Origin: a virus
DNA length: 64,000 nt
Reading direction: 5' to 3' (one strand)
Virus record (IMG/VR): IMGVR_UViG_3300009537_000005
Under the pieces are notes generated by a model that ran no database searches, was not told the origin of the DNA, and was given only the letters and a program-made list of their open reading frames with translations. The first letter of the stretch is position 1. Each line of letters starts with the position of its first letter. Made by a program: the position numbers and the translations under genes. Positions 1-51,675 of the stretch are shown here, one piece after another.

Positions 1-123
1 TGGTTTACTTGGCCCGTTGCGATGCTGATGATGATTTATCTATTCATCAATGCCTTTGTTGTATTGTTAATAGAGTGGGACAATGAGTAATTGGTACGAG
101 AAGTCCAGTTATGAAAGGCATGA

Positions 124-318
124 ATGATGATGTCAGAACGTGATACTGCGTTAGCCAATATAATCATCTATTGCTTTGAGGGTGATTATGTTAGCCCCAT
201 GATGTATCTTCAGGGCGGCTTGACCGAAGAGGAAATAAAGAAACTGATGAAAGCCTCCAAGCAACTCAGCGACCTCTGCTTGCAGGAGATACAAAAAAGG
301 AGAAATGCAGATGAGTAG
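124..318 (+). CDS. hypothetical small early protein
   Basis: ORF track; first of a co-oriented run of small ORFs. Confidence 0.3.
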   Translation: MMMSERDTALANIIIYCFEGDYVSPMMYLQGGLTEEEIKKLMKASKQLSDLCLQEIQKRRNADE

Positions 319-514
319 ACCCACATTTCCGCATTGTATTTTACCTGTTGCGTGTATTCGTGCCATTGTCGCCGAGCAAAAAGCTTATGACGACGATCCT
401 GAGGAATATGAAAGACAAGAACGGATTAGGCAGGAAGAAAGAGAATTAGAACAGCAAAGACAGTATGAAAGAAAGCAAATGGAGTGGCAGGAGATCAGGA
501 GGCGGGATGGATAA
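305..514 (+). CDS. hypothetical protein (E/R/Q-rich, helical)
   Basis: ORF track; overlaps the upstream ORF stop by 14 nt. Confidence 0.3.
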   Translation: MQMSRPTFPHCILPVACIRAIVAEQKAYDDDPEEYERQERIRQEERELEQQRQYERKQMEWQEIRRRDG

Positions 515-785
515 ATGTTATAGAATACGCAAAACTTGGTCGAATGGCAATGGAAATTCAAATTATGCCCATCATGCTGATGTAGTAGCACCTCATTGGG
601 CAACAGCATTGAAAGCCGCAAAAGAAGGACGAGTTAGGAACTGGCGATGGATTGATACATGGGATTCGTCTGACGAGGCCTACGAAGAATATGAATATCT
701 ATATCCAGTAGAGCCAGGAAATGCGCCTTGGCATCAGAACAAGATCGCCAAGCCTGTGGAGATCAAGCGAAGGAGGGAGAAGTGA
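465..785 (+). CDS. hypothetical protein; C-terminus EIKRRREK encoded by the 27-nt cassette
   Basis: ORF track; stop TGA 783-785 overlaps GTG 782-784 of the next gene (GTGA). Confidence 0.35.
   Translation: MKESKWSGRRSGGGMDKCYRIRKTWSNGNGNSNYAHHADVVAPHWATALKAAKEGRVRNWRWIDTWDSSDEAYEEYEYLYPVEPGNAPWHQNKIAKPVEIKRRREK
759..785 (+). repeat. 27-nt translational-coupling cassette, copy 1 (GAGATCAAGCGAAGGAGGGAGAAGTGA)
   Basis: Identical 27-mer also at 968-994 and 1185-1211; it encodes EIKRRREK-stop in one frame and SD plus GTG start in another. Confidence 0.7.
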
Positions 786-994
786 GATACTTTGATTATG
801 AGGTACTGGGTTATTGCGAGGCTGGTGTCCCAGCTCCTAGAACTCCAGAAGGTGTTGTCGATTGTCAAGAAAACGCAATGTATCGAATATGGTGGATGGG
901 TAAAGAAATAGATTCCATGCTGTTGTGTCCCGAACACTTCAAGAGTTTCTCAGAAGCAGAGGAAAGAGAGATCAAGCGAAGGAGGGAGAAGTGA
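782..994 (+). CDS. hypothetical protein; probable GTG start inside the repeat (ORF track lists 728..994)
   Basis: AGGAGGGAG SD 8 nt upstream of GTG 782; the same frame ends in a second EIKRRREK cassette. Confidence 0.35.
   Translation: MRYFDYEVLGYCEAGVPAPRTPEGVVDCQENAMYRIWWMGKEIDSMLLCPEHFKSFSEAEEREIKRRREK
968..994 (+). repeat. 27-nt translational-coupling cassette, copy 2
   Basis: Exact repeat. Confidence 0.7.
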
Positions 995-1170
995 CAAAGT
1001 TTGCAGAAATAAAATTAAATGTTGGAGCTACATATGTTCAGCCCTTCGATCAATTAGATGTACTTATTGACGAAATCAAGGAAGGGGAACCGGGGCATGA
1101 ATGGACTATCAAGATCGTTGAAATGACCGAAGAGGAATACGCTGCTTTGCCTGAATTTGAAGGGCACTGA
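991..1170 (+). CDS. hypothetical protein; probable GTG start inside the repeat (ORF track lists 925..1170)
   Basis: GTG 991 is preceded by the cassette SD; GTGA overlap with the upstream stop. Confidence 0.3.
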   Translation: MTKFAEIKLNVGATYVQPFDQLDVLIDEIKEGEPGHEWTIKIVEMTEEEYAALPEFEGH

Positions 1171-1184
1171 AAATCACGAAGATT

Positions 1185-1211
1185 GAGATCAAGCGAAGGA
1201 GGGAGAAGTGA
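1185..1211 (+). repeat. 27-nt translational-coupling cassette, copy 3
   Basis: Exact repeat; GTG 1208 is the start of ORF 1208..1471. Confidence 0.7.
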
Positions 1212-1471
1212 TGTTCGCACCTATATTTGAGAAGAATAGCGATAGATTTATTCTGCGTCTAGAAGATTACATTGCAGAAGATCATAATGGGGCATGGGAA
1301 ATCGGATGGGGAATTGCATTAGTTGAAGGAGTCATAATGGGCTTCAAGTTTACATCTGAAACCATTGAGATCGAAGGCGAAGTTCCTCATGTTCCGGCCA
1401 ATTTAGGCGGATGGCCTGTTGCTGTTTTGTCTGGCCCTACCTTTGATTGTAATGATAACGCCATCAAATAA
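1208..1471 (+). CDS. hypothetical protein
   Basis: GTG start at the identical position in the third copy of the 27-nt cassette. Confidence 0.4.
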   Translation: MMFAPIFEKNSDRFILRLEDYIAEDHNGAWEIGWGIALVEGVIMGFKFTSETIEIEGEVPHVPANLGGWPVAVLSGPTFDCNDNAIK

Positions 1472-1485
1472 GCGAAGGAGGCGGG

Positions 1486-1680
1486 ATGGGCGAAAGACGA
1501 CTTAAGACGACCAACCTAGACGAAGCGAGCGAATGGTTGCTCGATAACATATCAGGTCTGCGGGAGTTTGAACTACAAATAACGATTCGTAGTGAAGACT
1601 TGCTTCCGTTAGTGAAGTTTGTGACAGGTGGGGTTGTAGAAGATGCGTCCAATCAATTGTCACTTTGGACAGAAGAGTAA
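1486..1680 (+). CDS. hypothetical protein
   Basis: ATG preceded by AAGCGAAGGAGG, a partial fourth copy of the cassette. Confidence 0.35.
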   Translation: MGERRLKTTNLDEASEWLLDNISGLREFELQITIRSEDLLPLVKFVTGGVVEDASNQLSLWTEE

Positions 1681-1710
1681 ATTTTAAAATAGTCCCGCTT
1701 TTTAGAGAGG
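1679..1710 (+). promoter_or_regulatory. conserved upstream element AAATTTTAAAATAGTCCCGCTTTTTAGAGAGG (copy 1)
   Basis: Near-identical copies at 7464-7496 and 7737-7770, each 5-10 nt upstream of a small-ORF start. Confidence 0.4.
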
Positions 1711-1714
1711 CTTA

Positions 1715-1999
1715 ATGGTGGATGCACAACAATTTTTACAGATAATCGAAAAAATTTGGTGTCCAGACGGTGTAGCGAAGGGGCTTGGGCCGTGTCGAAA
1801 TTGCATGTTGAGAGCCGCGGTAACCATCCACCACATAACGCCCCGTAGCGTGGCTCCTGAACGTGTCTACGACATAGAAAATGTTCTTCCACTATGCCAT
1901 ATCTGCCACGAGTGGGCAGATACGGCGGGTAAAGCGGGACGAAACGAGTTGTACTTGATAGTGAAAAAAAGACTGGACAAGAAAGTGAGGAAACTATGA
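1715..1999 (+). CDS. HNH endonuclease-like protein
   Basis: Motifs HH-x-N ... PLCHICH (Cys/His HNH core); preceded by the conserved AAATTTTAAAATAGTC element. Confidence 0.55.
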   Translation: MVDAQQFLQIIEKIWCPDGVAKGLGPCRNCMLRAAVTIHHITPRSVAPERVYDIENVLPLCHICHEWADTAGKAGRNELYLIVKKRLDKKVRKL

Positions 2000-2274
2000 A
2001 CATAAAATACGACCGACTACCTGAGCACATGAGGCACGGAGCAAAGCTCTACATTGAACATGGCATTCGACCCGGTGGTTTTTTGACGGCGGTGTTGGAA
2101 AACAACCTTGTTCTCGCCTTTCAATTGGCGGACGGAATCAACCAAGGTTGTATGAAAGACTGGGCTGTGTGGCTAACGTGGGACATCCCCTCTCTTGCTT
2201 GGGGTTCTGCGGAGATGGTAGATATCTGGTCCAGAGCCGGCGGGATGGGACAGTTCGATGATATACCTGATTAG
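1996..2274 (+). CDS. hypothetical protein
   Basis: ORF track; ATGA overlap with the upstream gene. Confidence 0.35.
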   Translation: MNIKYDRLPEHMRHGAKLYIEHGIRPGGFLTAVLENNLVLAFQLADGINQGCMKDWAVWLTWDIPSLAWGSAEMVDIWSRAGGMGQFDDIPD

Positions 2275-2845
2275 CGACCAACACTGGGGACACAATAACA
2301 TACGCCATCTGTCCGTATGGAGAAACTTCGAAACGTTGCAGGATATGGACATCTACATGATTCGAGAATGGAATGGTCGAGTTTTGCCCGGCGATGATGT
2401 GTACCATTTAGGTGACATCTTCTGGAACATTGAGACCGCCCGGCGTGTACTACCCAGACTAAACGGGAACATCCGGCTCATCAAAGGAAATCACGATTGG
2501 TGGTTGGATCGAATGGAAGACGAAGACGAATGGATGTTCGACAAGATAGAGATTCTCGACCCCATACATCGTATCAATTTCAACAAGACGAAGATATGGA
2601 TGTCTCACTTCCCACTTCGAGTGTGGGAAGGTAGTTTTCAAGGTGCTATGCATGTTTATGGGCACTGTCATGGTACAATTGAAAAGGAACGGTTACCTCG
2701 GTCGATGGACATGAGTGTAGACGTGGCCGGCTACCAGCCTTGGACCGTGGAGGAGGTGTGGACTAAGCTGAACAAAGACCCCATTCGGCCGGAGGAACAG
2801 CGTATCTCTGGTGGCCTGAACTATTCAGAAAGGAAAGGACAATGA
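2258..2845 (+). CDS. metallophosphoesterase (calcineurin-like phosphatase fold)
   Basis: D-x-H-x-GH, GD-x-x-W and GNHD motifs in canonical order. Confidence 0.65.
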   Translation: MIYLISDQHWGHNNIRHLSVWRNFETLQDMDIYMIREWNGRVLPGDDVYHLGDIFWNIETARRVLPRLNGNIRLIKGNHDWWLDRMEDEDEWMFDKIEILDPIHRINFNKTKIWMSHFPLRVWEGSFQGAMHVYGHCHGTIEKERLPRSMDMSVDVAGYQPWTVEEVWTKLNKDPIRPEEQRISGGLNYSERKGQ

Positions 2846-3210
2846 ATGACGAAGAGCGAGCAGAAGAGATACAAAGACTCATTAAGAATGTGGACCTCGG
2901 TTCTCTGGATGAAAACAAGAAGAAACTCGTAAAACTAGTCCCAATTCTTTCGTGCAAAATACCCGACTGCCCGGAAGGACTCCATCGGTTCTTGCTTCAC
3001 ATTGATACGTTAGAGGGCACACCAATAGGAGTGAGTCTTGGTGTAGAAGATTGTGAAACGAGCGAAACAGAGGAAATCGTGTTGCTAATCCCTGACGTGT
3101 TGGAATTAATGGAAGCCGTTGGGAACATGATTCGTTTGCAATTGCTAAGACTAGCACTCAGTAGACTGGATTTTGACGACGATGCACCCGAAGATTTATT
3201 ACTTAGTTAG
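2842..3210 (+). CDS. hypothetical acidic protein
   Basis: ORF track; ATGA overlap. Confidence 0.4.
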   Translation: MNDEERAEEIQRLIKNVDLGSLDENKKKLVKLVPILSCKIPDCPEGLHRFLLHIDTLEGTPIGVSLGVEDCETSETEEIVLLIPDVLELMEAVGNMIRLQLLRLALSRLDFDDDAPEDLLLS

Positions 3211-3475
3211 AAAGCTAACGTGGCGAGAAAGCAAGCACTTTTGGCGGACGCAAAGGGCGGAAGTGTACGTTTCCTGTCGGGGGATATGTTGGTTGTGCGG
3301 ACATCGGGTATCCCTAAATGACCGTAAACCATTCTCCATAGACCATATTATCCCCCGTGTGTTGGGAGGTTCGGACAAGCTGTACAACTTGCGACTAACT
3401 CATGCTAGTTGTCATCAGAAGCACTCAAAGACGCAACAGGAGCGACTTGACAGATACGTCGTAAATACGCGATAA
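3173..3475 (+). CDS. HNH endonuclease
   Basis: C-x2-C ... DHIIP ... GG ... N-x-x-L-x-H-x-x-CH-x-x-H: a complete HNH motif. Confidence 0.6.
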   Translation: MTTMHPKIYYLVRKLTWRESKHFWRTQRAEVYVSCRGICWLCGHRVSLNDRKPFSIDHIIPRVLGGSDKLYNLRLTHASCHQKHSKTQQERLDRYVVNTR

Positions 3476-3479
3476 TATA

Positions 3480-3905
3480 GTGAGAGAAAAAATGTGGGAC
3501 GAAGACAGATTACAAGAAGGATGCGACCGATATCACCGTCTGAAAGAGGACGGTCACTTAAATAAAATTGGAGGAAGAATAATGCCAACCGTTTATGCAA
3601 AAGAAGAAGGAGTAATTATTTGGTCGGACTTAAATAGGGCACACAAAGCCGGACGAGTGCCACGGTATGAACCGCTGACTGTTCTTAATTCGTATAAGAA
3701 CTGGTATAGAATCTCTCGGCCGGATGACATCTCTCTGCCACCCGACCCGCTGTACGATGACTACTGGGTACACAACACGGACGTTCTGATGGGACTTCCC
3801 GACCCGATACTACCGGACCCAACACCAGACCCGGTGCCGGGAAATATCAGTATAGACGATGTAGCACAAGCCATTTTCGTAGTCTTGAGATGGTTAAAGC
3901 AGTAA
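3480..3905 (+). CDS. hypothetical protein
   Basis: ORF track. Confidence 0.4.
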   Translation: MREKMWDEDRLQEGCDRYHRLKEDGHLNKIGGRIMPTVYAKEEGVIIWSDLNRAHKAGRVPRYEPLTVLNSYKNWYRISRPDDISLPPDPLYDDYWVHNTDVLMGLPDPILPDPTPDPVPGNISIDDVAQAIFVVLRWLKQ

Positions 3906-3909
3906 GCGC

Positions 3910-4353
3910 TTGGAAGGACCAAGTCAGGCCACATGTATATGGTCTGTTAGCCGCCGTCGGGTGGCAACAAATGGCTCTATGGGCGCTGTTCAACTGGAAG
4001 TGGGAGTGGGGATTTGCCATTCTGTTCGGATTGTCTTGGTTGACAATCTTATTACCGATATATATGTACTGCTACGTAATCTGGCGTACATGGGAGGAGG
4101 TATGAATGAACTAGAACTGCAAACGTACCGATCACAATTCGATAAACATACGCTTCAGATGATGGTAGTGATGTACTTGTATGAATTGTACGACATGATG
4201 TTCGTGGTAGATAGACGAATCGCAAGACTAACACCAAATGGGCGGGAATTGGCTGAGGTTCTGTTAAAAGAGCCCGAATACAGGGATTTTGCTATTGAAA
4301 GGGTCGATTCTGTACGAAAAAACAGTTCAAAGTGGCAAGACTACGTAAATTAG
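3910..4353 (+). CDS. hypothetical protein (alternative overlapping ORF 3890..4105 encodes a TM peptide)
   Basis: ORF track; last ORF before the tRNA-array promoter. Confidence 0.3.
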   Translation: MEGPSQATCIWSVSRRRVATNGSMGAVQLEVGVGICHSVRIVLVDNLITDIYVLLRNLAYMGGGMNELELQTYRSQFDKHTLQMMVVMYLYELYDMMFVVDRRIARLTPNGRELAEVLLKEPEYRDFAIERVDSVRKNSSKWQDYVN

Positions 4354-4365
4354 CAAGTTTGGGGC

Positions 4366-4406
4366 TTGACAAATTTACATTTTGATCCCAAAATATATGT
4401 GCAGGG
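4366..4406 (+). promoter_or_regulatory. sigma70-like promoter of family TTGACAAA-N17-CAAAATATA; drives the tRNA/Y RNA array
   Basis: cTTGACAaatttacattttgaTCCCAAAATATAtg; the same 40-nt architecture recurs at 11665, 38232(-), 51676(-) and 58940(-). Confidence 0.6.
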
Positions 4407-4478
4407 GCTAAAACCCCGGTTTGCCCGATAAAAAATTGCCCGGCTACCTAAATGGATGAACGCAGGGCGGGGCAACTC

Positions 4479-4550
4479 GCAGGGCTGATCTAACTGGAAT
4501 GAGCATTGTCTCCAAAACAATGAATCCTCGTTCGAATCGAGGGCCCTGTG
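4479..4550 (+). tRNA. tRNA-Trp (anticodon CCA)
   Basis: Acceptor GCAGGGC/GCCCTGT, anticodon arm ATTGT-CTCCAAA-ACAAT, T-arm CCTCG-TTCGAAT-CGAGG; weak D-stem. Confidence 0.6.
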
Positions 4551-4555
4551 CTTAT

Positions 4556-4626
4556 AGGCGTGTCGTCTAATGGCAAGACGCGAAGCTGTTAACTTCGTTA
4601 TCTAGGTTCGAGTCCTAGCGTGCCTG
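4556..4626 (+). tRNA. tRNA-Asn (GTT)
   Basis: Acceptor AGGCGTG/CGTGCCT, anticodon arm CGAAG-CTGTTAA-CTTCG, T-arm CTAGG-TTCGAGT-CCTAG. Confidence 0.7.
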
Positions 4627-4632
4627 CCTAAT

Positions 4633-4755
4633 GTGAGCCGAAGGGTCGTGGGTTATCATATCAGAAACGTAAAAGTCGCCTCTCGGGGTGAACATACGAA
4701 GGCAGGAGCCGTGATGCCCGGCCATCTCCCATCCCATTCCTTGCTCGCATAACTT
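4633..4755 (+). ncRNA. Y RNA-like ncRNA A (Ro60-binding-type helix; 3' end abuts tRNA-Ala)
   Basis: 5' box GAGCCGAAGGGTCGTGGGTTATCAT pairs with 3' box CCTTGCTC to give GAGC-[C bulge]-GA / UU-GCUC; a pyrimidine tract CCATCTCCCATCCCATTCC precedes the 3' strand; compare human Y RNA 5' GGUCCGAAGGUAGUGAGUUAUC. Confidence 0.65.
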
Positions 4756-4827
4756 GGGGAATTCATATTAACGGGAGTATGCCTCGTTTGCACCGAGGTC
4801 GTGTGGGTTCGAGTCCCTCATTCTCCA
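4756..4827 (+). tRNA. tRNA-Ala (TGC)
   Basis: Acceptor GGGGAAT/ATTCTCC, anticodon arm CCTCG-TTTGCAC-CGAGG, T-loop TTCGAGT; atypical D-arm. Confidence 0.55.
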
Positions 4828-4947
4828 CCTAGCCCGAGTGACGACGGTCACGAGCATATGCCGGGCAAGGTATTCGTCTCTAGCCGCAAATCGAGACGCC
4901 GCTGCGGAAACTGACCTGCCCCGTAGACGCGGTTTGTTAAGGTCCAC

Positions 4948-5019
4948 GCCCCTCTGGTGAAATGGATATCACTCGTGGCTTCGAACCACGCGTTGCGCGT
5001 TCAAGTCGTGCGGGGGGTG
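4948..5019 (+). tRNA. tRNA-Arg (TCG)
   Basis: Acceptor GCCCCTC/GGGGGGT (G-U pairs), D GTGA-loop-TCAC, anticodon arm CGTGG-CTTCGAA-CCACG, T-loop TTCAAGT. Confidence 0.65.
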
Positions 5020-5087
5020 CCTAATCGGGTCGGGGACATAGCGTTACCTGGCTAAAGTCCGCTGTGTCACAAACTTATCCGAAACAT

Positions 5088-5159
5088 GCCGATATAGCTC
5101 AGATGTAGAGCAGTCGCCTTGTAAGCGACAGTGCGTGGACTCGAGAACCACTATCGGCC
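5088..5159 (+). tRNA. tRNA-Thr (TGT) with a non-canonical T-loop
   Basis: Acceptor GCCGATA/TATCGGC, D GCTC-AGATGTA-GAGC, anticodon arm GTCGC-CTTGTAA-GCGAC; T-loop reads CTCGAGA instead of TTCRAAT. Confidence 0.55.
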
Positions 5160-5162
5160 CCA

Positions 5163-5234
5163 GCGGGCTTGGTGTTAGCAGTAGCACGACGGCCTTCCAA
5201 GCCGCAAGGACGAGTGCGAATCTCGTAGCCCGCT
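5163..5234 (+). tRNA. tRNA-Gly (TCC)
   Basis: Perfect acceptor GCGGGCT/AGCCCGC, anticodon loop CTTCCAA, T-arm ACGAG-TGCGAAT-CTCGT. Confidence 0.7.
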
Positions 5235-5363
5235 CTTAAGCAGAATTAGTTTATCTTAGTAAAACGGAGCCTTGCCAAGGCTCAGTGCGGGGAGCATGGC
5301 CCCGATTCTGCTCCTAAGATACTGTCTGAACAGGAGGTTCGAACCCTCCCAGCAGTATCTCAG

Positions 5364-5434
5364 TGCCTCTTAGTCTAGCGGCAGGACTGCGGTCTTTGGA
5401 ACCGTAAGGCGTGGTTCGAATCCACGAGAGGCAT
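5364..5434 (+). tRNA. tRNA-Gln (TTG)
   Basis: U1-A72 acceptor TGCCTCT/AGAGGCA (bacterial Gln-like), anticodon arm GCGGT-CTTTGGA-ACCGT, T-arm CGTGG-TTCGAAT-CCACG. Confidence 0.75.
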
Positions 5435-5437
5435 CCT

Positions 5438-5566
5438 ATGGTTTGGAACAGTCCTTTTGGTACGATTTATATCTCGCCCGACGTATATTTCGTTCTACTC
5501 GTCGTATGGTTATCTTTGCTTGTATATGGTGGAATGTACATCATGGGAGTGTTCGAAGATAAATAA
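5438..5566 (+). CDS. hypothetical 42-aa hydrophobic peptide (MVWNSPFGTIYISPDVYFVLLVVWLSLLVYGGMYIMGVFEDK) between tRNAs
   Basis: Uninterrupted ATG..TAA frame filling the gap between the two tRNA-Gln genes; predicted single TM helix; below the ORF-track size cutoff. Confidence 0.25.
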   Translation: MVWNSPFGTIYISPDVYFVLLVVWLSLLVYGGMYIMGVFEDK

Positions 5567-5639
5567 TCAGGGACGGTGTAATAGGTTGCACGTCCGGCTC
5601 TGAACCGGAAGATTGCAGGTTCGATCCCTGCTCCCTGAT
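5567..5639 (+). tRNA. tRNA-Gln (CTG)
   Basis: U1-A72 acceptor TCAGGGA/TCCCTGA, anticodon arm TCCGG-CTCTGAA-CCGGA, T-arm GCAGG-TTCGATC-CCTGC. Confidence 0.75.
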
Positions 5640-5718
5640 CCTAGAGACACACAACGGACAAGGCTAGAGGCCGCCGAAGGCGGGTGGGTAGCGAGTGGTT
5701 GACCAGTGTCTCTAACAA

Positions 5719-5791
5719 GCCGCTGTAAGATAAAGGACAGTCGCCAATGCTTCTAACATTGGGAGTGGTGGTTCGAATCCATCCAGCGGTG
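5719..5791 (+). tRNA. tRNA-Arg (TCT)
   Basis: Acceptor GCCGCTG/CAGCGGT, anticodon arm CAATG-CTTCTAA-CATTG, T-arm GGTGG-TTCGAAT-CCATC. Confidence 0.65.
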
Positions 5792-5793
5792 CC

Positions 5794-6025
5794 TATATCG
5801 GGGATTGGGAAAGTCTAGCTAATCCGCTCGCCTTGGACGCGAGAGATCGCTGGGGCAGAGCCAGCATCCCCGACCTAGCCCCCACCGGTACCAGTGAGGG
5901 GTGAGCCTAGTTTCGAGGCCAACTATTCTGTGGCTCAACACAATGTTGGTCCCTGCCTTGAGCAAGTAGGCTAGGCAAATGAAACCCGCCCGGCTGTAGC
6001 GTATGCGAAATTCGCCGGGCAATAC
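5794..6025 (+). ncRNA. unassigned structured spacer in the tRNA array (candidate ncRNA)
   Basis: 232 nt with no tRNA fold; nested inverted repeats (GGGGAT..ATCCCC; GCCCGGC-19nt-GCCGGGC); the overlapping minus-strand ORF 5819..6037 has no support. Confidence 0.25.
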
Positions 6026-6107
6026 GGAAGCGCCCAAAGGAGCGGTACGCGGTCTTGAAAACCGTGAGATGTGAAAGCATGTGGGAGTTCGAGTCTCTCC
6101 GCTTCCG
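6026..6107 (+). tRNA. tRNA-Ser (TGA), class II
   Basis: Acceptor GGAAGCG/CGCTTCC, anticodon arm GCGGT-CTTGAAA-ACCGT, long variable arm (about 18 nt), T-arm GGGAG-TTCGAGT-CTCTC. Confidence 0.75.
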
Positions 6108-6256
6108 CCTAAAGGGTCTATCTGCCCCGGCCCCTAGCTATGGGCACATAGCATAAGAGGTCGCATTCTAGAGGGGCTTGGATTGATCCTAGCCCGCTTC
6201 AAGAGATTGCACCATGTCAGAAAGGACAGAGAGCAAACCATTGGCGGGCTAAACGT

Positions 6257-6328
6257 GGGGATTGTAGTTTATGGAGTAAAACCCTGTCTGTGGAACAGGC
6301 GTAAAGGGTGCGAATCCCTTCAATCCTC
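6257..6328 (+). tRNA. tRNA-His (GTG) with encoded G-1
   Basis: Extra 5' G pairs with C73; acceptor GGGATTG/CAATCCT, anticodon arm CCTGT-CTGTGGA-ACAGG, T-arm AAGGG-TGCGAAT-CCCTT. Confidence 0.75.
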
Positions 6329-6334
6329 CCTCAT

Positions 6335-6406
6335 GTGCTTGTAGCTGAGACAGTCTAGCACTCGGTTGAAGCCCGAGAGACACTGGTGCAATTCCAGTCG
6401 AGCACA
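6335..6406 (+). tRNA. tRNA-Phe (GAA)
   Basis: Acceptor GTGCTTG/CGAGCAC, anticodon arm CTCGG-TTGAAGC-CCGAG, T-arm ACTGG-TGCAATT-CCAGT. Confidence 0.75.
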
Positions 6407-6411
6407 CCTAA

Positions 6412-6484
6412 GTCTCTGATGCGAATGGCAAGCGGACCACCTGCAAAGTGGTTACTAACGTGGGTTCGAATCCCACCAGAGACT
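6412..6484 (+). tRNA. tRNA-Cys (GCA)
   Basis: Acceptor GTCTCTG/CAGAGAC, anticodon arm ACCAC-CTGCAAA-GTGGT, T-arm GTGGG-TTCGAAT-CCCAC; 7-nt variable loop. Confidence 0.65.
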
Positions 6485-6505
6485 CCTTAAAACAAACGAA
6501 GAATT

Positions 6506-6577
6506 GGGTTTGTGGCGAAGTGGCATCGCACCAGCCTCTTAAGCTGTGAGTCGGTAGTTCGAATCTACCCAAGCCCA
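6506..6577 (+). tRNA. tRNA-Lys (CTT)
   Basis: Acceptor GGGTTTG/CAAGCCC, D GCGA-AGTGGCAT-CGC, anticodon loop CTCTTAA, T-arm GGTAG-TTCGAAT-CTACC. Confidence 0.7.
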
Positions 6578-6582
6578 CCTAT

Positions 6583-6663
6583 GCAGTTGTGGTGGAACGG
6601 CATACACGCTGGCCTCAAACCCCAGTGGGGAAACCCGTGCAGGTTCGACTCCTGTCAACTGCA
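6583..6663 (+). tRNA. tRNA-Leu (CAA), class II
   Basis: Acceptor GCAGTTG/CAACTGC, D GTGG-AACGGCAT-ACAC, anticodon loop CTCAAAC, 13-nt variable arm, T-arm GCAGG-TTCGACT-CCTGT. Confidence 0.65.
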
Positions 6664-6667
6664 CTAT

Positions 6668-6741
6668 GCAAGCGTGAAGGGAATGGCATACCTCGGTCAT
6701 TTAAAATGACTGGCTTGGTGGTTCGAGTCCACCCGCTTGTA
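6668..6741 (+). tRNA. tRNA with anticodon TAA (Leu codons UUR) but a short class-I variable loop
   Basis: Acceptor GCAAGCG/CGCTTGT, anticodon arm GGTCA-TTTAAAA-TGACT, 5-nt variable loop, T-arm GGTGG-TTCGAGT-CCACC. Confidence 0.55.
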
Positions 6742-6746
6742 CCTAT

Positions 6747-6821
6747 GCCCTCGTAGGAGAATTGGCATATCCGCACGGTTTAGGCCCGTGGTCAATAGTG
6801 GTTCGAATCCACTCGGGGGTA
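6747..6821 (+). tRNA. tRNA with anticodon TAG (Leu codons CUN) but a short class-I variable loop
   Basis: Acceptor GCCCTCG/CGGGGGT, anticodon arm CACGG-TTTAGGC-CCGTG, 6-nt variable loop, T-arm AGTGG-TTCGAAT-CCACT. Confidence 0.55.
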
Positions 6822-6890
6822 CCTTGTGTAAAGTAGTTTAGATTTTTCTTAACTCAAATCCATTTGAGTATAGTTTTCTTTACTCAACGC

Positions 6891-6965
6891 GCGCCGGTAG
6901 CTCCAATCGGTTAGAGCAGGAGTCTTTTAAACTCAAGGCTGGGGGTTCGAATCCCTCGCGGCGCA
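6891..6965 (+). tRNA. tRNA-Lys (TTT)
   Basis: D GCTC-loop-GAGC, anticodon loop CTTTTAA, T-arm GGGGG-TTCGAAT-CCCTC, acceptor GCGCCGG/GCGGCGC (7-66 mismatch). Confidence 0.65.
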
Positions 6966-6970
6966 CTCCT

Positions 6971-7044
6971 GCCATCATAGTCTAGTGGAAGGACGCAAGC
7001 CTTTCAAGCTTGAGGGCGGGGGTCAGTACCCCGTGATGGTACCA
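6971..7044 (+). tRNA. tRNA-Glu (TTC), CCA encoded
   Basis: Glu-like D-arm GTCTAGTGGAAGGAC, anticodon arm CAAGC-CTTTCAA-GCTTG, T-loop GTCAGTA (non-canonical), 3' TGATGGT-A-CCA. Confidence 0.65.
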
Positions 7045-7045
7045 T

Positions 7046-7117
7046 GCTCTTGTAGTCTAGTGGACAGGACGCTACCCTCTCAAGGTAGAAGCCGGGGTTC
7101 AACTCCCCGTGAGAGCA
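7046..7117 (+). tRNA. tRNA-Glu (CTC)
   Basis: GTCTAGTGGACAGGAC D-arm, anticodon arm TACCC-TCTCAAG? read as CTCTCAA loop (CTC), T-arm CGGGG-TTCAACT-CCCCG, acceptor GCTCTTG/TGAGAGC. Confidence 0.6.
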
Positions 7118-7359
7118 CCTAGGCACGGACCAACGCGGCGAAAGCCGAGGAAGCTCGGGACTACATAGGGCAACTCAGTACAGCCACAGAGACGAGTAAA
7201 GTGAAACGGGCCACGGCTGAGAGTTAGCAATCCCAAGTCGTGCGACAGTGACCCGCTGAGAAGCACAGGTAGGGAGCAGTCACTCGTAAAGAGGGACCGT
7301 CACTTAGTGGCGAGACAGATGTTGGTCGATAACAGAATCCCGGCTATAGTGCCTAACAC
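7118..7359 (+). ncRNA. unassigned 242-nt purine-rich structured spacer (candidate ncRNA)
   Basis: No tRNA fold and no ORF; GAAA-containing motifs (GCGGCGAAAGCCGAGG, GAGTAAAGTGAAACGGGCC); flanked by tRNA-Glu and tRNA-Ser. Confidence 0.2.
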
Positions 7360-7443
7360 GGATGGTTGGCAGAGAGGCTAATTGCACTCGGTTGCTAACC
7401 GAGCGGGGTAACACCCACATAGGTTCGAATCCTATACCATCCG
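7360..7443 (+). tRNA. tRNA-Ser (GCT), class II
   Basis: Perfect acceptor GGATGGT/ACCATCC, anticodon arm ACTCGG-TTGCTAA-CCGAG, long variable arm, T-arm ATAGG-TTCGAAT-CCTAT. Confidence 0.75.
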
Positions 7444-7463
7444 CCTGCGTTATCAAAAAGGCT

Positions 7464-7496
7464 AAAATTTCAAAATAACTTCTCTTTTTGGAGATA
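7464..7496 (+). promoter_or_regulatory. conserved upstream element (copy 2)
   Basis: AAAATTTCAAAATAACTTCTCTTTTTGGAGATA. Confidence 0.4.
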
Positions 7497-7498
7497 TA

Positions 7499-7726
7499 AT
7501 GTATGAAGTAAATATGTTTTATCCGGGCAAAGTCAGAAGTAATCTAGAAAAAGAATTTGACGATAAGATATACGGCCGTTGGGCATCCGGCTATAGCTTT
7601 GAAGATAATATCAGAGACATAGCGTTTAGCATTGAAACTCTAGACCTGGTACGAGATTTGATGGCCTACTTACCCTGTGACGGCTGGATTACGGTACGAC
7701 TGAGAGACGGAGTGGTAGAAGCATAA
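7499..7726 (+). CDS. hypothetical small protein embedded in the tRNA array
   Basis: ORF track; preceded by the conserved AAAATTTCAAAATA...CTTTTTGGAGA element plus SD. Confidence 0.35.
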   Translation: MYEVNMFYPGKVRSNLEKEFDDKIYGRWASGYSFEDNIRDIAFSIETLDLVRDLMAYLPCDGWITVRLRDGVVEA

Positions 7727-7736
7727 ATTACTACCC

Positions 7737-7770
7737 TAAAATTTCAAAATAGTCTCGCTTTTTCGGAGAG
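7737..7770 (+). promoter_or_regulatory. conserved upstream element (copy 3)
   Basis: AAAATTTCAAAATAGTCTCGCTTTTTCGGAGAG. Confidence 0.4.
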
Positions 7771-7776
7771 ATTTCC

Positions 7777-7980
7777 ATGCACAAGCAGAATAATCGTTGG
7801 ACTTGGAAAGAGTTTGGTAAGCGGATCAGCCCACACGCTGGATGGTTTAGTAGATGGAGACGTGGTGACGGGAGACTATGGAAAAAGAAGTTAAGTAAGG
7901 CGCGGAGACGAGCGTGGAAAGACCCACACCAACGGGGATTACTAAGTGTCGAGCGGGAATGTAATTGGAAGACATGGTAA
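7777..7980 (+). CDS. hypothetical basic (R/K/W-rich) small protein
   Basis: ORF track; preceded by a second copy of the same conserved upstream element. Confidence 0.35.
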   Translation: MHKQNNRWTWKEFGKRISPHAGWFSRWRRGDGRLWKKKLSKARRRAWKDPHQRGLLSVERECNWKTW

Positions 7981-8195
7981 TGCGTGGATTAGCATACAGA
8001 CGATATCAAATGGATCGTATCAAGAAGAAACGGGCCCACTACTGGGGTGGACACGCTGGTAGTGATCCAAGACTGTTGGGAATAGTTGCTAAAACACCAC
8101 ACCCTTGTAGTGGCTGGTGTTGTGGCAATCCACGGAAGCATTTTGGCGAGAAGACTCGTCAAGAAATAACATGGACGGCTGGCGATCTCGGTTGA
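7965..8195 (+). CDS. hypothetical small protein; 3' end would overlap tRNA-Ile
   Basis: ORF track; overlaps the 5' part of the tRNA called at 8173, so the true extent is uncertain. Confidence 0.2.
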   Translation: MEDMVMRGLAYRRYQMDRIKKKRAHYWGGHAGSDPRLLGIVAKTPHPCSGWCCGNPRKHFGEKTRQEITWTAGDLG

Positions 8196-8247
8196 ACGCG
8201 CTACTCTGATAAGGTAGTATAGGCAGGTTCGAATCCTGCGCCGTCTA
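8173..8247 (+). tRNA. tRNA-Ile (GAT)
   Basis: Acceptor GGACGGC/GCCGTCT, anticodon arm CTACT-CTGATAA-GGTAG, T-arm GCAGG-TTCGAAT-CCTGC. Confidence 0.65.
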
Positions 8248-8252
8248 CTTCT

Positions 8253-8326
8253 GGACTGGAAGCCAATTGGATTGAGGCATCACTCTTATAAGGTGAGTAT
8301 AGCTGGTTCGACTCCAGCCCGGTCTA
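8253..8326 (+). tRNA. tRNA with anticodon TAT (would read the AUA Ile codon)
   Basis: Acceptor GGACTGG/CCGGTCT, anticodon arm TCACT-CTTATAA-GGTGA, T-arm GCTGG-TTCGACT-CCAGC. Confidence 0.55.
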
Positions 8327-8331
8327 CCTAC

Positions 8332-8405
8332 GGCTTGGTAGCTCAATTGGATAGAGCGCCACACTGTCGATGTGGTGGTTGCGGGTTCAAGTCCCGTCCG
8401 AGTCG
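8332..8405 (+). tRNA. tRNA-Asp (GTC)
   Basis: D GCTC-AATTGGAT-AGAGC, anticodon arm CCACA-CTGTCGA-TGTGG, T-arm GCGGG-TTCAAGT-CCCGT. Confidence 0.7.
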
Positions 8406-8411
8406 CCTTTA

Positions 8412-8492
8412 TAGGGCCGAAGAGTAAGTGGGTTATCATACAGTTGACGTATACCTTCGGGTACTCCCACCCTCACAACTTGCCCTATACAT
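8412..8492 (+). ncRNA. Y RNA-like ncRNA B (short form; compensatory variant of the Ro60-binding helix)
   Basis: 5' box GGGCCGAAGAGTAAGTGGGTTATCAT pairs with 3' box CTCACAACTTGCCC to give GGGC-[C]-GA / UU-GCCC. The A-to-G change on the 5' strand is matched by T-to-C on the 3' strand relative to copies A, C and D. Internal GTACC-TTCG-GGTAC tetraloop hairpin; 3' end abuts tRNA-Val. Confidence 0.65.
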
Positions 8493-8566
8493 GCAGGCTT
8501 AGCTCAGTTGGATAGAGCACTTCTTTTACACAGAAGGTGTCGGGAGTTCGAGTCTCTCAGCCTGTA
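8493..8566 (+). tRNA. tRNA-Val (TAC)
   Basis: Acceptor GCAGGCT/AGCCTGT, D GCTC-AGTTGGAT-AGAGC, anticodon arm CTTCT-TTTACAC-AGAAG, T-arm GGGAG-TTCGAGT-CTCTC. Confidence 0.75.
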
Positions 8567-8573
8567 CCTATAT

Positions 8574-8741
8574 GTGAGCCGACGGTAACAGGGTTCTCGT
8601 CCTTATCAGGAGGAATTCTGAATGCGGGTAACCTGCTATAGTGGTTAAAGTGATGACTAGATCGGGCCCTTATGCTGGTCCGACAACGAAAACATTGCGG
8701 GTCTTGGACCTTCCCCTGGCCACAACTTGCTCACACAACAT
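8574..8741 (+). ncRNA. Y RNA-like ncRNA C (long form, about 168 nt)
   Basis: 5' box GAGCCGACGGTAACAGGGTTCTCGTCCTTATC and 3' box CCTTCCCCTGGCCACAACTTGCTCACACAACAT pair as GAGC-[C]-GA / UU-GCUC; 3' end abuts tRNA-Met. Confidence 0.55.
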
Positions 8742-8815
8742 GCCGAATAGGCCAATTGGATAGGCACCCGTCTCATTAACGGGGTTGTGTGGTTCGATTC
8801 CACAATTCGGTACCA
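8742..8815 (+). tRNA. tRNA-Met or Ile2 (CAT), CCA encoded
   Basis: Acceptor GCCGAAT/ATTCGGT-A-CCA, anticodon arm CCCGT-CTCATTA-ACGGG, T-arm TGTGG-TTCGATT-CCACA; no initiator signature. Confidence 0.7.
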
Positions 8816-8886
8816 CGCGGGGTTGAGGAGCGGCTCCTCCGTAGGCTCATAACCTACTCACGTCGGTTCGAATCCGACCCCCGCTA
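8816..8886 (+). tRNA. second CAT-anticodon tRNA (Met/fMet/Ile2 undetermined); starts directly after the CCA of the previous tRNA
   Basis: D GAGG-AGCGGCT-CCTC, anticodon arm GTAGG-CTCATAA-CCTAC (initiator-like loop sequence), T-arm GTCGG-TTCGAAT-CCGAC, acceptor CGCGGGG/CCCCGCT with a 1-72 mismatch. Confidence 0.5.
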
Positions 8887-8892
8887 CTTAGT

Positions 8893-9044
8893 ACGAGCCG
8901 ACGAGTAAGTGGGTTATCTTCTATCAAAAGAGAGGTCGTGAGTTCGAATCTCACCCCGTCTACCATAGACGGGTAGCTCAGTGGCAGAGCGCTGGCGAAA
9001 GCCTTCCCACTCTCATAACTTGCTCGTACAACATAACTCACAAT
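8893..9044 (+). ncRNA. Y RNA-like ncRNA D with a permuted tRNA-like domain (YrlA-type)
   Basis: 5' box GAGCCGACGAGTAAGTGGGTTATCTT; internal T-arm GTGAG-TTCGAAT-CTCAC; then CCCGTCT-ACCAT-AGACGGG (acceptor stem closed as a hairpin over a CCA-containing loop); then TA-GCTC-AGTGGCA-GAGC D-arm; then 3' box CCTTCCCACTCTCATAACTTGCTCGTACAACAT; followed by tRNA-Tyr. Confidence 0.7.
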
Positions 9045-9125
9045 GGCGGTGCGCCCGTGTGGGAACGGGGTCGGTCTGTAGAACCGATGGCATGCGCATA
9101 GGAAGTTCGATTCTTCACGCCGCCA
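9045..9125 (+). tRNA. tRNA-Tyr (GTA), class II
   Basis: Acceptor GGCGGTG/CGCCGCC, D CCCG-TGTGGGAA-CGGG, anticodon arm TCGGT-CTGTAGA-ACCGA, 12-nt variable arm, T-loop TTCGATT. Confidence 0.7.
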
Positions 9126-9182
9126 CCTAGACCAATTCGGGTCTATTATCCGAGTGGTTTTCTCCTCGGAAAGGAGGATTCA

Positions 9183-10826
9183 GTGACTTACACAAGGCAC
9201 TATAACGTACGAAAGACGCCACAGAACCAACCAATTCCGGGTAAGAACATGGTCGCCAACAGCGCTGGCGGTTTTGCGTTCGCCGTTGACGACTGGGCAC
9301 GTCTAAGACGTTTCTTAATTCTTGGCGCAGAAGGTGGTACATACTACATTGGCGAGAAGGAGCTAACAATCGGGAATGCCGAGGCTGTACTGCGTTGCAT
9401 CAAGGAAGATGGTATTGGTGTTGTTGACACGATTGTTGATGTCAGTAAGGGTGGTAGAGCACCAAAGAACGACCCTGCTCTATTTGCTTTAGCTATGTGT
9501 GCCGGATTAGGAAACGAAAACACGAAGCGCCATGCTCTTAACGCACTGCCAGAAGTAGCACGAATTGGTACTCACCTATTCACTTTCGCAGAGTACGTAC
9601 AAGCGTTTCGTGGCTGGGGACGGTCACTGCGCCGAGCCGTTGGTGAGTGGTACACAACCAAGGAACCAAAGCAACTAGCATACCAGCTAGTGAAGTATCA
9701 ACAGCGGAACGGTTGGTCACACCGTGACTTACTGCGACTATCTCACCCTAAGTCAGATGAGCACAACGTTCTGTTCAATTGGGTGACACAAGGACCGGGC
9801 GAAGGTACACACTTTGATTTGCCGGTAAATGAAGCCACTAGGTTAATTTACGCTTTCGAGAGGGCCAAGACAGCGGACGAAGCAGAGACTATTGAGTTGA
9901 TTATAGACTACGGTCTAACTCGTGAAATGATCCAGACAAAGCACCTAAACAGTGCGGATGTTTGGTTCGCTTTGCTACAGAACATGCCTATGACAGCTAT
10001 GATCCGGAACCTAGGCAAGATGACTCAGGTTGGGCTACTAGGTGACGGCCGATGGGACTCTAACAAGATTGTGCAGGACCGACTGCGAGACTCAGTGCGG
10101 TTGGCCAAGGCAAGAATTCACCCGCTGAATGTTTTAGTAGCTCTGAGAACCTACGATAGCGGTGGCGGATACCGAGGTAAGTTAGTCTGGAATCCGTCGC
10201 GAGACATTGTGAGCGCACTGAATGACGCTTTCTACCTGGCGTTCGATGGAGTATACCCAACAGGCAGGCGGTTTGTGTTGGGCGTGGACGTGAGCAGTAG
10301 CATGAGTGCTACGATAGGCAACACAGTGTTGTCTGCGGCAGAAGCCGCTGTGGCAATGGCGATGGTAATTCGACGAACGGAAGACCAAGCTATAATCCGA
10401 GGATTCGCTGGTGGCGAACGCCGGTATAGCGATCCCTTACAAGGTCCGAACTACGATGGTTTCATGGACTTAGGCATCAGTAGAGAGACACGACTAGAGT
10501 CAGCAATGGAACGGACACGAAACAAGAACTTCGGTCGGACAGACTGTGCTCTGCCTATGTTGTGGGCACTAAAGAACGAGGTCGAAGCTGACGTATTTTG
10601 TATTTTCACTGACTCAGAAACATGGGTAGGAAAAATTCACCCAGTACAGGCGCTACAACAGTACCGAGAAAAGATGAACATCCCGGCTAAGTTGATTGTT
10701 GTGGCGATGACAAGTAATGGCTTCAGCATCGCTGACCCAAACGATGGGGGCATGCTAGACGTGGTGGGATTTGATACATCAATTCCGCAAGTGATGGCGG
10801 ACTTCATTGGGATATCAGGCCCCTAA
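9183..10826 (+). CDS. rsr: Ro60/Rsr orthologue (TROVE domain plus C-terminal vWA domain with a MIDAS motif)
   Basis: N-terminal WARLRRFLILGAEGGTYYIGEKELTIGNAEAVLRCIKEDG...PALFALAMCAG matches Ro60 (human ...[39 protein letters not shown]...PMLFALA); C-terminal VLGVDVSSSMSA is a DxSxS MIDAS motif; GTG start after GGAAAGGAGG. Confidence 0.9.
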   Translation: MTYTRHYNVRKTPQNQPIPGKNMVANSAGGFAFAVDDWARLRRFLILGAEGGTYYIGEKELTIGNAEAVLRCIKEDGIGVVDTIVDVSKGGRAPKNDPALFALAMCAGLGNENTKRHALNALPEVARIGTHLFTFAEYVQAFRGWGRSLRRAVGEWYTTKEPKQLAYQLVKYQQRNGWSHRDLLRLSHPKSDEHNVLFNWVTQGPGEGTHFDLPVNEATRLIYAFERAKTADEAETIELIIDYGLTREMIQTKHLNSADVWFALLQNMPMTAMIRNLGKMTQVGLLGDGRWDSNKIVQDRLRDSVRLAKARIHPLNVLVALRTYDSGGGYRGKLVWNPSRDIVSALNDAFYLAFDGVYPTGRRFVLGVDVSSSMSATIGNTVLSAAEAAVAMAMVIRRTEDQAIIRGFAGGERRYSDPLQGPNYDGFMDLGISRETRLESAMERTRNKNFGRTDCALPMLWALKNEVEADVFCIFTDSETWVGKIHPVQALQQYREKMNIPAKLIVVAMTSNGFSIADPNDGGMLDVVGFDTSIPQVMADFIGISGP

Positions 10827-10834
10827 ACAGTGAT

Positions 10835-10865
10835 CCCGGCACCCAGCCGGGGTCATTCTCTTTTG
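10835..10865 (+). terminator. candidate intrinsic terminator after rsr
   Basis: CCCGGC-ACCCA-GCCGGG hairpin followed by GTCATTCTCTTTTG. Confidence 0.35.
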
Positions 10866-10878
10866 AAAGGAGAGAACA

Positions 10879-11076
10879 ATGTCCAAGACAACCGTGTGTA
10901 TTAAAGCGACTATCTATATTGATGTAGATGTTCCTCACTCTATTGTGGAGGTTGCGACAACGCTTGGTGAATTTCCTGTAGATCAGAAGCTACGAGAAGT
11001 ACTAAAAGATTCACTGGTTCTAATTGTGGATTGGGAAGACGCAGAGGTCGTGGCCCTCTTGTCACAGGACGAATAG
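10879..11076 (+). CDS. hypothetical small protein
   Basis: ORF track; SD GAAAGGAGAGAA upstream. Confidence 0.3.
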   Translation: MSKTTVCIKATIYIDVDVPHSIVEVATTLGEFPVDQKLREVLKDSLVLIVDWEDAEVVALLSQDE

Positions 11077-11097
11077 AAAAATCCAAAGGAGTTAGTT

Positions 11098-11613: not shown

Positions 11614-11664
11614 TGTAGCGAAGGGTACTAGAAGAGTGACTATCAGAGAAAATGGTTTTGGGAC

Positions 11665-11697
11665 TTGACAAATTGTAAATTTGGTCCCAAAATATAG
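11665..11697 (+). promoter_or_regulatory. promoter of the TTGACAAA-N17-CAAAATATA family upstream of the primase gene
   Basis: cTTGACAaattgtaaatttgGTCCCAAAATATAgg; the -10 ends only a few nt before the GTG/ATG, so the mRNA is nearly leaderless. Confidence 0.5.
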
Positions 11698-38174: not shown

Positions 38175-38231
38175 CTAAGATGCCTCCATTTAATTGTTCG
38201 GTAGTTAAGTGAAAAAGCTAAACTACCGTCT

Positions 38232-38267
38232 ATGTATATTTTGGGACCATTTCATTCGTTTGTCAAG
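38232..38267 (-). promoter_or_regulatory. minus-strand promoter of the TTGACAAA family (scaffold/capsid operon)
   Basis: Reverse complement reads gtcTTGACAaacgaatgaaatgGTCCCAAAATATAcatag. Confidence 0.55.
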
Positions 38268-38289
38268 ACATTTGTGCCAATTTGTGCAT

Positions 38290-38320
38290 TACCAACACAT
38301 AAAACGGTCCTAAAATATAC
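38290..38320 (+). promoter_or_regulatory. divergent plus-strand variant promoter pointing into the 3' end of the giant minus-strand gene
   Basis: TTACCA-N16-TAAAATATAcATG; shares the GGTCCTAAAATATA core; would give an antisense or leaderless transcript over ORF 38321..38578. Confidence 0.3.
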
Positions 38321-38477
38321 ATGGGAGACGTTTATCGACTGGGGAAGATATTGATTTTGCCCATCCAACCCAAATTCAGATGGGTTAGTAATTATCATCC
38401 CAGATGCGAGGGTAATCTGATAGATTATGCTTCCCGCTGTAAGCGGGGCTGTTGGCCCCTGAATTATTCTCATAAGA

Positions 38478-51570: not shown

Positions 51571-51675
51571 GATTTGGGTCTTTTCAATTGTGTTTCGAAT
51601 TACAACTGATGTGACTAATGAAATGCCGACGAAGCGCCTATCGTCTCGTTTTTCTTCGGGCGTGGCGCTCCTCTA

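Follow-up and report, generated by a model that had tools for sequence, protein, structure and literature searches.

A repeated 27-nucleotide stop/start junction among small early genes of an uncultured tailed phage

The stretch of DNA analysed here, referred to as the window, comprises 64,000 nucleotides (nt) of an uncultured tailed phage (IMG/VR virus record IMGVR_UViG_3300009537_000005) and forms part of a JGI metagenomic contig of 69,284 nt. Its G+C content (GC) is 47.4%, and no relative at the nucleotide level was found among cultured phages. The + strand carries 26 tRNA genes (4479-9127) together with replication genes encoding a primase/helicase, a DNA polymerase, a UvsX-like recombinase (17899-18888) and an exonuclease-like protein, while head, packaging and other virion genes lie on the - strand. 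Our subject is an array of gene junctions at the beginning of the + strand block, among tightly packed small genes, where a sequence of 27 nt, GAGATCAAGCGAAGGAGGGAGAAGTGA, is repeated exactly. An earlier, sequence-only reading of this DNA had described the 27-mer as a stop/start cassette coupling the translation of small early genes.

The junction array

The three exact copies that had been claimed are indeed present (copies 1-3, Table 1). No extra match to GAGATCAAGCGAAGGAGGGAGAAGTGA appears at up to three mismatches, and 100 dinucleotide-preserving shuffles gave none. The copies share one strand and are spaced 209 and 217 nt apart; all fall within 450 nt and there are none elsewhere in the 64 kb. 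A partial fourth copy had been proposed at 1474-1488. It exists, though at somewhat different coordinates: the sequence shared exactly, AAGCGAAGGAGG, occupies 1470-1481 (four matches in the window against 0.32 expected), and the likeness of this copy, c4, to copies 1-3 extends back to ATCAA at 1464 if a 3-nt insertion, which creates a TAA at 1469-1471, is allowed. There are in fact three diverged copies (283-318, 485-514 and 1464-1489), of which the first two had been missed. The copy at 485-514, c0, reads GGCAGGAGATCA-GGAGGCGGGATGGATAA, and the 14-mer AGGAGGCGGGATGG is found exactly both there (497-510) and in c4 (1476-1489), two matches where 0.02 would be expected. In its 5' half c4 is like copies 1-3, in its 3' half like c0. 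The remaining diverged copy, recognized by alignment, is the 3' end of gene 124-318, CAGGAGATACAAAAAAGGAGAAATGCAGATG.

Since the three diverged copies align with the three exact ones, six consecutive junctions are related, namely g124/g305, g305/g507, g507/g782, g782/g991, g991/g1211 and g1211/g1486 (gene names as in Table 1). The 27-mer is supported as a gene-junction element, neither a chance match nor a remnant of paralogous genes. The sequence GATC is under-represented in the window as a whole (169 observed against about 249 expected from base composition), and despite this rarity each cassette copy contains one.

Table 1. Junction copies and genes of the array
Feature	Position	Strand	Description
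Junction copy at g124 3' end	283-318	+	Diverged, …LQEIQKRRNADE followed by the stop; overlaps the next gene's start
Junction c0 (variant)	485-514	+	Shine-Dalgarno sequence AGGAGG, ATG507, TAA512-514
Junction copy 1, exact	759-785	+	g507 end EIKRRREK, TGA783-785, Shine-Dalgarno sequence AAGGAGG 770-776, GTG782
Junction copy 2, exact	968-994	+	g782 end, Shine-Dalgarno sequence, GTG991 overlapping TGA992-994
Junction copy 3, exact	1185-1211	+	Intergenic, 14 nt past the g991 stop; Shine-Dalgarno sequence for g1211
Junction c4 (hybrid)	1464-1489	+	ATCAA+ATA+AGCGAAGGAGG, then CGGGATGG; start ATG1486
g124	124-318	+	Family appears to supply the junction; homologues P0029 (82% identity, contig L019) and P0030 (46% identity, contig L018)
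g305	311-514	+	g124-type tail …WQEIRRRDG before the stop; source annotation start ATG311
g507	507-785	+	Widespread small-protein family (…NWRWIDTFD…); EIKRRREK tail from copy 1
g782	782-994	+	Cys-rich small-protein family (FDYEVL…C…C…WW…C.EH); tail from copy 2
g991	991-1170	+	86% amino acid and 79% nucleotide identity to genes of contigs L020 and L021; matches phrog_24528
g1211	1211-1471	+	Widespread small-protein family; probable start ATG1211
g1486	1486-1680	+	Body apparently fused to the cassette ATG

Start codons and gene bodies

The two open reading frames (ORFs) that end at 785 and 994 both finish in EIKRRREK and a stop codon, as had been noticed. At copy 3 the preceding gene, g991, stops at 1168-1170, and the EIKRRREK frame is open only from 1161 and holds no ATG, GTG or TTG. 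Copy 3 is therefore non-coding in that frame, so that its identity must have been kept at the nucleotide level and not for the sake of a peptide. The common tail is not what was selected: it arose incidentally as the 3' end of the g124 gene family was copied.

The proposed overlap of stop codon, Shine-Dalgarno sequence (SD) and GTG start holds for copies 1 and 2 (TGA, AAGGAGG, 5-nt spacer, GTG), where GTGA stop/start overlaps occupy 782-785 and 991-994 and the SD lies within the upstream ORF. It does not extend to copy 3: no ORF ends there, and stop/start coupling therefore cannot apply. Likewise, of the three genes thought to start at an identical position of the cassette, two probably do so, at GTG782 and GTG991, but the third more likely begins at ATG1211; AAGGAGG is placed 5 nt ahead of the former two and 8 nt ahead of the latter. 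The codons at 728 and 925, taken in the sequence-only reading for competing upstream ATGs, are actually TTG and GTG, and neither is preceded by an SD.

Homologous N-termini agree with these assignments. Members of the g782 family begin one to three residues ahead of a conserved FDYEVL, which fits GTG782; g991 homologues begin MKYAKYAEIK, comparable with (V)TKFAEIK from GTG991; and several members of the g1211 family begin MF(A/V)PI(F/Y)EK, which fits ATG1211 better than GTG1208. The source annotation, made by another gene-calling pipeline, also starts the three genes at GTG782, GTG991 and ATG1211. Given these homologue N-termini and gene calls, and upstream alternatives that lack an SD, GTG782 and GTG991 appear to be the best-supported starts. 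For g1211 the most likely start is ATG1211, 3 nt beyond the cassette GTG1208.

With an Escherichia coli-type 16S rRNA tail, the predicted SD/anti-SD energy of the cassette is -12.8 kcal/mol, ranking 2-4 among 56 starts. The SD is unpaired in predicted folds, and the three junctions are no more stable than shuffled sequences (z = -0.07, +0.64 and +1.08). Nor does the junction element match anything in Rfam, and on these two grounds a structured RNA element was rejected; inverted repeats, too, are lacking at the cassettes. The order SD, spacer, AAG, UGA is superficially like that of prfB, but a programmed frameshift fusion was discarded, judging by the sequence alone, since the downstream frame is -1 with respect to the upstream one and a slippery heptamer is lacking. 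A promoter and terminator consensus scan of positions 1-5000 revealed no strong site between the small genes and no promoter-like site in or beside the cassettes, so that the small genes of the array may reasonably be regarded as co-transcribed. Translation may be coupled at copies 1 and 2.

When a 3-periodic Markov model was trained on the window's long genes, it ranked the annotated frame as the best of six for every small ORF. Between the encoded bodies, all-against-all BLASTP of the small proteins detected no likeness beyond the shared tail, which led us to reject a paralogous gene array. The proteins are not ORFans either. Exhaustive HMMER searches with g507, g782, g1211 and g124 (E ≤ 1e-3) matched 205 proteins, and g507, g782 and g1211 each proved to belong to a large family of its own. 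For g991, close homologues came from an exact look-up; all four genes that lie between copies have relatives elsewhere. The exact g507 product is present in the source annotation. A few HMMER matches seemed to hint at a g507-g782 fusion in other genomes, but they spanned artificial joins in the query and reflect variable extensions only. The g782 family consists of conserved proteins of about 60 amino acids (aa) with invariant C12, C28, C49 and H52 and a WW motif, and looks like a small zinc-binding domain.

The homologues show the bodies in other surroundings. The nucleotide identity of g991 to its counterparts in contigs L020 and L021 is restricted to about 1003-1172, ending on the left within a few bases of copy 2 and on the right some 12 nt short of copy 3; there the gene begins at a start of its own (MMKYAKY…) and has a different ribosome-binding site (RBS), other neighbours and no cassette on either side. 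Homologues of g507 (L022 and L023) and of g1211 (L024) likewise have other neighbours and other junctions, without a cassette in the case of g507, and an IMG/VR search with the g507 alignment returned one locus, with different neighbours. The g305 homologue in L014 begins MSRPEFP and ends in a different C-terminus. In L012 and L014, g1486 homologues have seven to nine extra N-terminal residues, which suggests that the g1486 body was trimmed and fused to the cassette ATG.

The junction in other genomes

A scan of metagenomic contigs with the central 20-mer gave two loci, on L017 and L018. The former is a chance-like single match and was discarded as a carrier. The latter is a contig of 94 kb and 33% GC with no other detectable gene in common with the window, and in it the exact 28-mer closes a 47-aa homologue of g124, P0030 (…KQLSDLCLQEIKRRREK and stop, …LQEIKRRREK). 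The search for the 27-mer in other genomes that had been suggested earlier thus yielded an exact copy, though in one other contig only. In IMG/VR the 27-mer and its halves are absent save for the 5' 18-mer in 11 contigs; these represent one unrelated gene lineage with the match inside a coding region, and were set aside. The cassette is absent from cultured phages and the 20-mer from bacterial genomes. The 3' 18-mer has 16 bacterial matches, which were dismissed as about 17 are expected by chance (2 x 596 Gb / 4^18) and none extends further.

The closer relative L019, with about 78% nucleotide identity over the replication genes, also lacks the cassette. Its g124 homologue ends in …WQEIQKRRRGE and is followed, after a 10-codon ORF, directly by the homologue of the gene at window position 11098, the whole stretch 305-11080 being missing at this place. 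The synteny break therefore coincides with the 3' end of g124. The tail of the L019 gene and the start of the mini-ORF align with c0, that is, with the g305 tail and the first codons of g507.

In both L018 (7596-7636, - strand) and L019 (558-590, + strand) the g124-family gene is thus followed by a mini-ORF, of 12 and 10 codons respectively, whose start lies on an overlapping GTGA or ATGA and which runs up to the next gene, stopping at its start or shortly ahead of it; in L018 nothing else separates the GTGA from that gene. The mini-ORF of L019 resembles the first codons of g507. These mini-ORFs have the look of relics left by deleted modules, or of ORFs that relay coupling.

The approximately 10.8 kb gone from L019 (at its positions 561-607) hold the small genes, two HNH endonuclease genes, a phosphoesterase, the tRNA cluster and a 547-aa gene, and the gene beyond, at 11098, is methyltransferase-like. 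Since a phosphoesterase segment with 83% aa and 72% nucleotide identity was found in L016, from the same sample, the block may lie at a different site or belong to another strain. The two free-standing HNH genes (1715-1999 and 3173-3475, + strand) bracket the phosphoesterase region, and homologues of both occur in related contigs at varying positions. The tRNA cluster, on the + strand, spans most amino acids, a separate tRNA-Glu lying at 62596-62670 (+), and directly 3' of the cluster (9183-10826) is the gene of the 547-aa protein, which matches phrog_850 ('RNA-binding protein'). Within the virion gene block an ORF of 2270 aa occupies 38478-45290 (-).

Three more distant contigs, L012, L014 and L015, also encode other proteins of note: an FtsH-like AAA+/Peptidase_M41 protein, sigma-70-family factors and, in L015, a homologue of ribosomal protein S21 (these genes lie at L012 103-1857 and 8548-9273, L015 1-1051 and 6624-6824, and L014 2796-3707). 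Such an S21, encoded by a phage, might influence how translation is initiated in this lineage.

Known systems and the origin of the junction

Among known systems, the array can be compared with the promoter-early stem-loop (PeSL) elements, mobile regulatory cassettes of T4-type phages (Arbiol et al. 2010, PMC2839356; Comeau et al. 2014, PMC4122927). In both, small accessory or ORFan genes of an early region, plastic in the PeSL phages and perhaps here too, are flanked by short repeated cassettes for expression, the unit spans the stop of the upstream gene plus the SD and start of the downstream one, and the repeats are proposed substrates for recombination that inserts, deletes or shuffles the flanked genes with their expression signals; this phage, too, encodes a UvsX-type recombinase. 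Gene gain and loss bounded by the element, as with PeSLs, may be reflected here in g991, which copies 2 and 3 enclose and whose homology with L020 and L021 ends at the copies, and in the L019 break at the 3' end of g124. However, PeSLs are intergenic elements of about 100 bp containing a sigma-70 promoter and a terminator stem-loop, neither of which is found in the 27-nt element. The latter is partly coding, specifying the C-terminus of the upstream protein, and would act, if at all, on translation. It is also present in only three exact and three diverged copies at one locus, as against some 50 PeSLs per genome.

The window does contain a second set of cassettes beside small genes, at the level of transcription and nearer to the PeSL kind than the 27-mer. 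This is a 42-nt promoter-like repeat, CTTGACTCGCACGTCGTAAACGTGGTAAACTAGATT… (TTGACT, 17 nt, TAAACT), with four copies on the + strand (60266-60307, 60661-60702, 61327-61368 and 62349-62390), each preceding a small ORF. Another conserved promoter-like repeat, TTTGGGACTTGACAAAT…GGTCCCAAAATATAGGTG, heads gene blocks on both strands (4358-4401 and 11657-11700, +; 38216-38266, 51659-51709 and 58921-58971, -). It contains an internal inverted repeat, GGGAC/GTCCC, around the -35/-10 elements, and a divergent pair lies at 38232-38322.

The start-associated sequences (SAS) of Cluster K mycobacteriophages (Pope et al. 2011, PMC3203893) offer another parallel. These have a 13-bp consensus, GGGATAGGAGCCC, contain AGGAG, lie 3-7 bp upstream of starts and occur in 11-19 copies over the non-structural half of the genome, conserved across the phage cluster. 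Like them, the 27-mer is a repeated asymmetric sequence with an SD core, a few bases 5' of starts and in one orientation (here always the + strand), associated with non-structural genes from different families; sometimes the upstream stop is included, and conservation exceeds what pairing with rRNA explains. Yet its sequence is different and longer, it is limited to one locus (283-1489) and absent from L012, L014, L015 and L019, and it lacks inverted repeats like those of extended SAS. The SAS consensus itself has one match with two mismatches in the window (44684, -; 1.03 expected) and none at the cassettes.

Copies 1 and 2 also have the layout of ordinary ATGA/GTGA coupling (AAGGAGG, 5 nt, GTGA), with the SD inside the last codons of the upstream gene, which accounts for the abundance of K, R, E and G in their tails. 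Such overlaps, though, normally vary between junctions, whereas here 27 nt are identical at three, one of which (copy 3) has no upstream ORF end. Mosaic phage genomes have been linked to short boundary sequences and relaxed homologous recombination (De Paepe et al. 2014, PMC3945230), a situation similar in that gene modules are exchanged at short stretches of identity; it concerns temperate lambdoid phages with hundreds of bp of homology, in contrast to the junction alone in the present case. As to integrons, no attC-type inverted repeat or structure is found at the junctions and no integrase turned up among the proteins scanned, although the window was not searched exhaustively for one. The 27-mer junction would work like a miniature, translation-level counterpart of the PeSL and has the look of an SAS, but it fails the defining features of both. 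The reuse of a junction is a variant of known phage gene shuffling and not a new kind of system.

How did the array arise? We consider it probable that a stop/SD/start junction was copied by recombination as gene modules were inserted, and that it also confers strong, coupled translation. The junction copies all resemble the 3' end of the g124 gene family and would all derive from it. The junction after g124 would have been an insertion hotspot into which unrelated small accessory genes recombined one by one, each insertion leaving the new gene body flanked by two copies of the junction. Junction copies in different genomes may have crossed over with one another, or the genes may have travelled as excised circles, a route proposed for PeSLs. 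The outcome would be the present array of g124, g305, g507, g782, g991, g1211 and g1486, all in one stop/SD/start socket, in which the three identical copies are either the most recent or homogenised. For each captured, promoterless ORF the socket would provide a very strong, unstructured RBS, and at copies 1 and 2 the GTGA overlap would couple translation along one polycistronic early mRNA. The hybrid nature of c4 is what a crossover within the shared AGGAGG core of two junction types would yield. The earlier description of the junction as modular and duplicable agrees with the comparative data, and appears supported by the independent gene bodies, the exact copy in L018 and the synteny break in L019. 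The UvsX-type recombinase and the exonuclease-like protein of the phage suit such an account, and the length of 27 nt falls within the minimal pairing segment of 23-27 bp given for Red-beta (PMC3945230). Nevertheless, it is by these steps of argument that we infer the recombination mechanism, along with co-transcription and coupling, and several points weigh against it. No relative was found with the same array plus or minus one module, so that no single insertion event has been directly observed. Only one other contig in all the collections searched carries the cassette, and L012, L014 and L015, relatives with about 70% identity in the phosphoesterase, are without it. Recombination on 27 bp is inefficient, and the hybrid copy implies crossovers only 6-7 nt long. 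The 11 nt 5' of the SD, GAGATCAAGCG, are perfectly kept even in the non-coding copy 3 and in the 33%-GC genome, which could equally reflect selection for a binding site. Finally, the starts and the coupling rest on the sequence, on homologue N-termini and on the gene calls of another pipeline.

The conservation of GAGATCAAGCG leads directly to the main rival, according to which the 27-mer is an SAS-like cis-regulatory site in mRNA or DNA, where a phage or host protein or a small RNA co-regulates the translation of early genes; its identity would then be kept by selection for binding rather than by recent copying. This would account for the invariance of all 27 nt, including in copy 3 the 11 nt with no obvious role in rRNA pairing, and for the presence of an identical 28-mer in an unrelated contig of 33% GC where its G+C-rich codons are out of place, and the position relative to starts does resemble that of SAS (PMC3203893). 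We nonetheless regard it as unlikely. A regulatory site is hard to reconcile with just three exact copies confined to 450 nt of the 64 kb, with relatives that lack it at the homologous genes and with neighbouring variants, c0 and c4, in which parts of it are missing or altered. The ORF that begins at the cassette GTG of L018 has just 12 codons, and neither a shared RNA structure, an Rfam match nor the SAS consensus is found at the cassettes. It is improbable, furthermore, that the copies are independent strong RBSs made identical by gene conversion or convergent selection, with no part in assembling the genes. Copies some 210 nt apart on the same strand would favour conversion, few SDs in the window are stronger than that of the cassette, and RBS contexts recur weakly in relatives, as with the 13-mer GATTAGAAAGGAG repeated before two consecutive genes of L012. 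But convergence leaves the identity of 27 out of 27 positions, non-SD bases included, unexplained, and conversion requires pre-existing homology. Neither process explains why the exact copy in L018 and the synteny break in L019 are both at g124 homologues, nor the g124-like tails of c0 and copies 1 and 2 and the hybrid c4.

Duplication of one ancestral small gene in tandem, with divergence everywhere save at the junction, might be suggested by the similar spacings of 209 and 217 nt, and the origin of the contig in a metagenome assembly raises the thought of an artefact. Both are highly improbable and already contradicted by the data. The gene bodies are mutually dissimilar and come from different conserved families, and the annotated frame, the best of six by coding potential, runs straight through every junction. 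A repeat of 27 nt is shorter than sequencing reads and also below the usual final k-mers of assemblers, and the independent assembly L018 holds the same 28-mer.

A bolder form of the copying account would make the 27-mer a dedicated, laterally shared socket for gene capture, integron-like but without an integrase and operating at the level of translation signals. Unrelated phages, of 47% and 33% GC, would share a minimal stop/SD/start unit that needs only general phage recombination, by which promoterless small ORFs would be exchanged directly into a translationally coupled early operon. In a variant of this, the invariant GAGATCAAGCG may also be the address of a trans-acting translational regulator. 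We think it unlikely that the 27-mer is so specialized, and prefer its copying during the insertion of gene modules.

The shared C-terminal peptides of proteins such as those of g507 and g782 do not imply homology, and identical junctions therefore call for caution in annotation. The 27-mer could also serve as a ready-made natural coupling cassette for synthetic operons. More broadly, the early regions of phages contain many small genes with a fast turnover, and it is understood only in part how phages acquire these and still keep expression intact. The PeSLs showed that cassettes can double as expression signals and recombination sites; the junction locus suggests that the same logic works with a far smaller unit acting on translation, in which a gene's end serves again as a universal adaptor and a captured ORF gains a strong RBS and coupling to its neighbour. 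If general, this would explain why the boundaries of phage mosaics so often coincide with gene junctions, and why short basic tails are common to unrelated small proteins.

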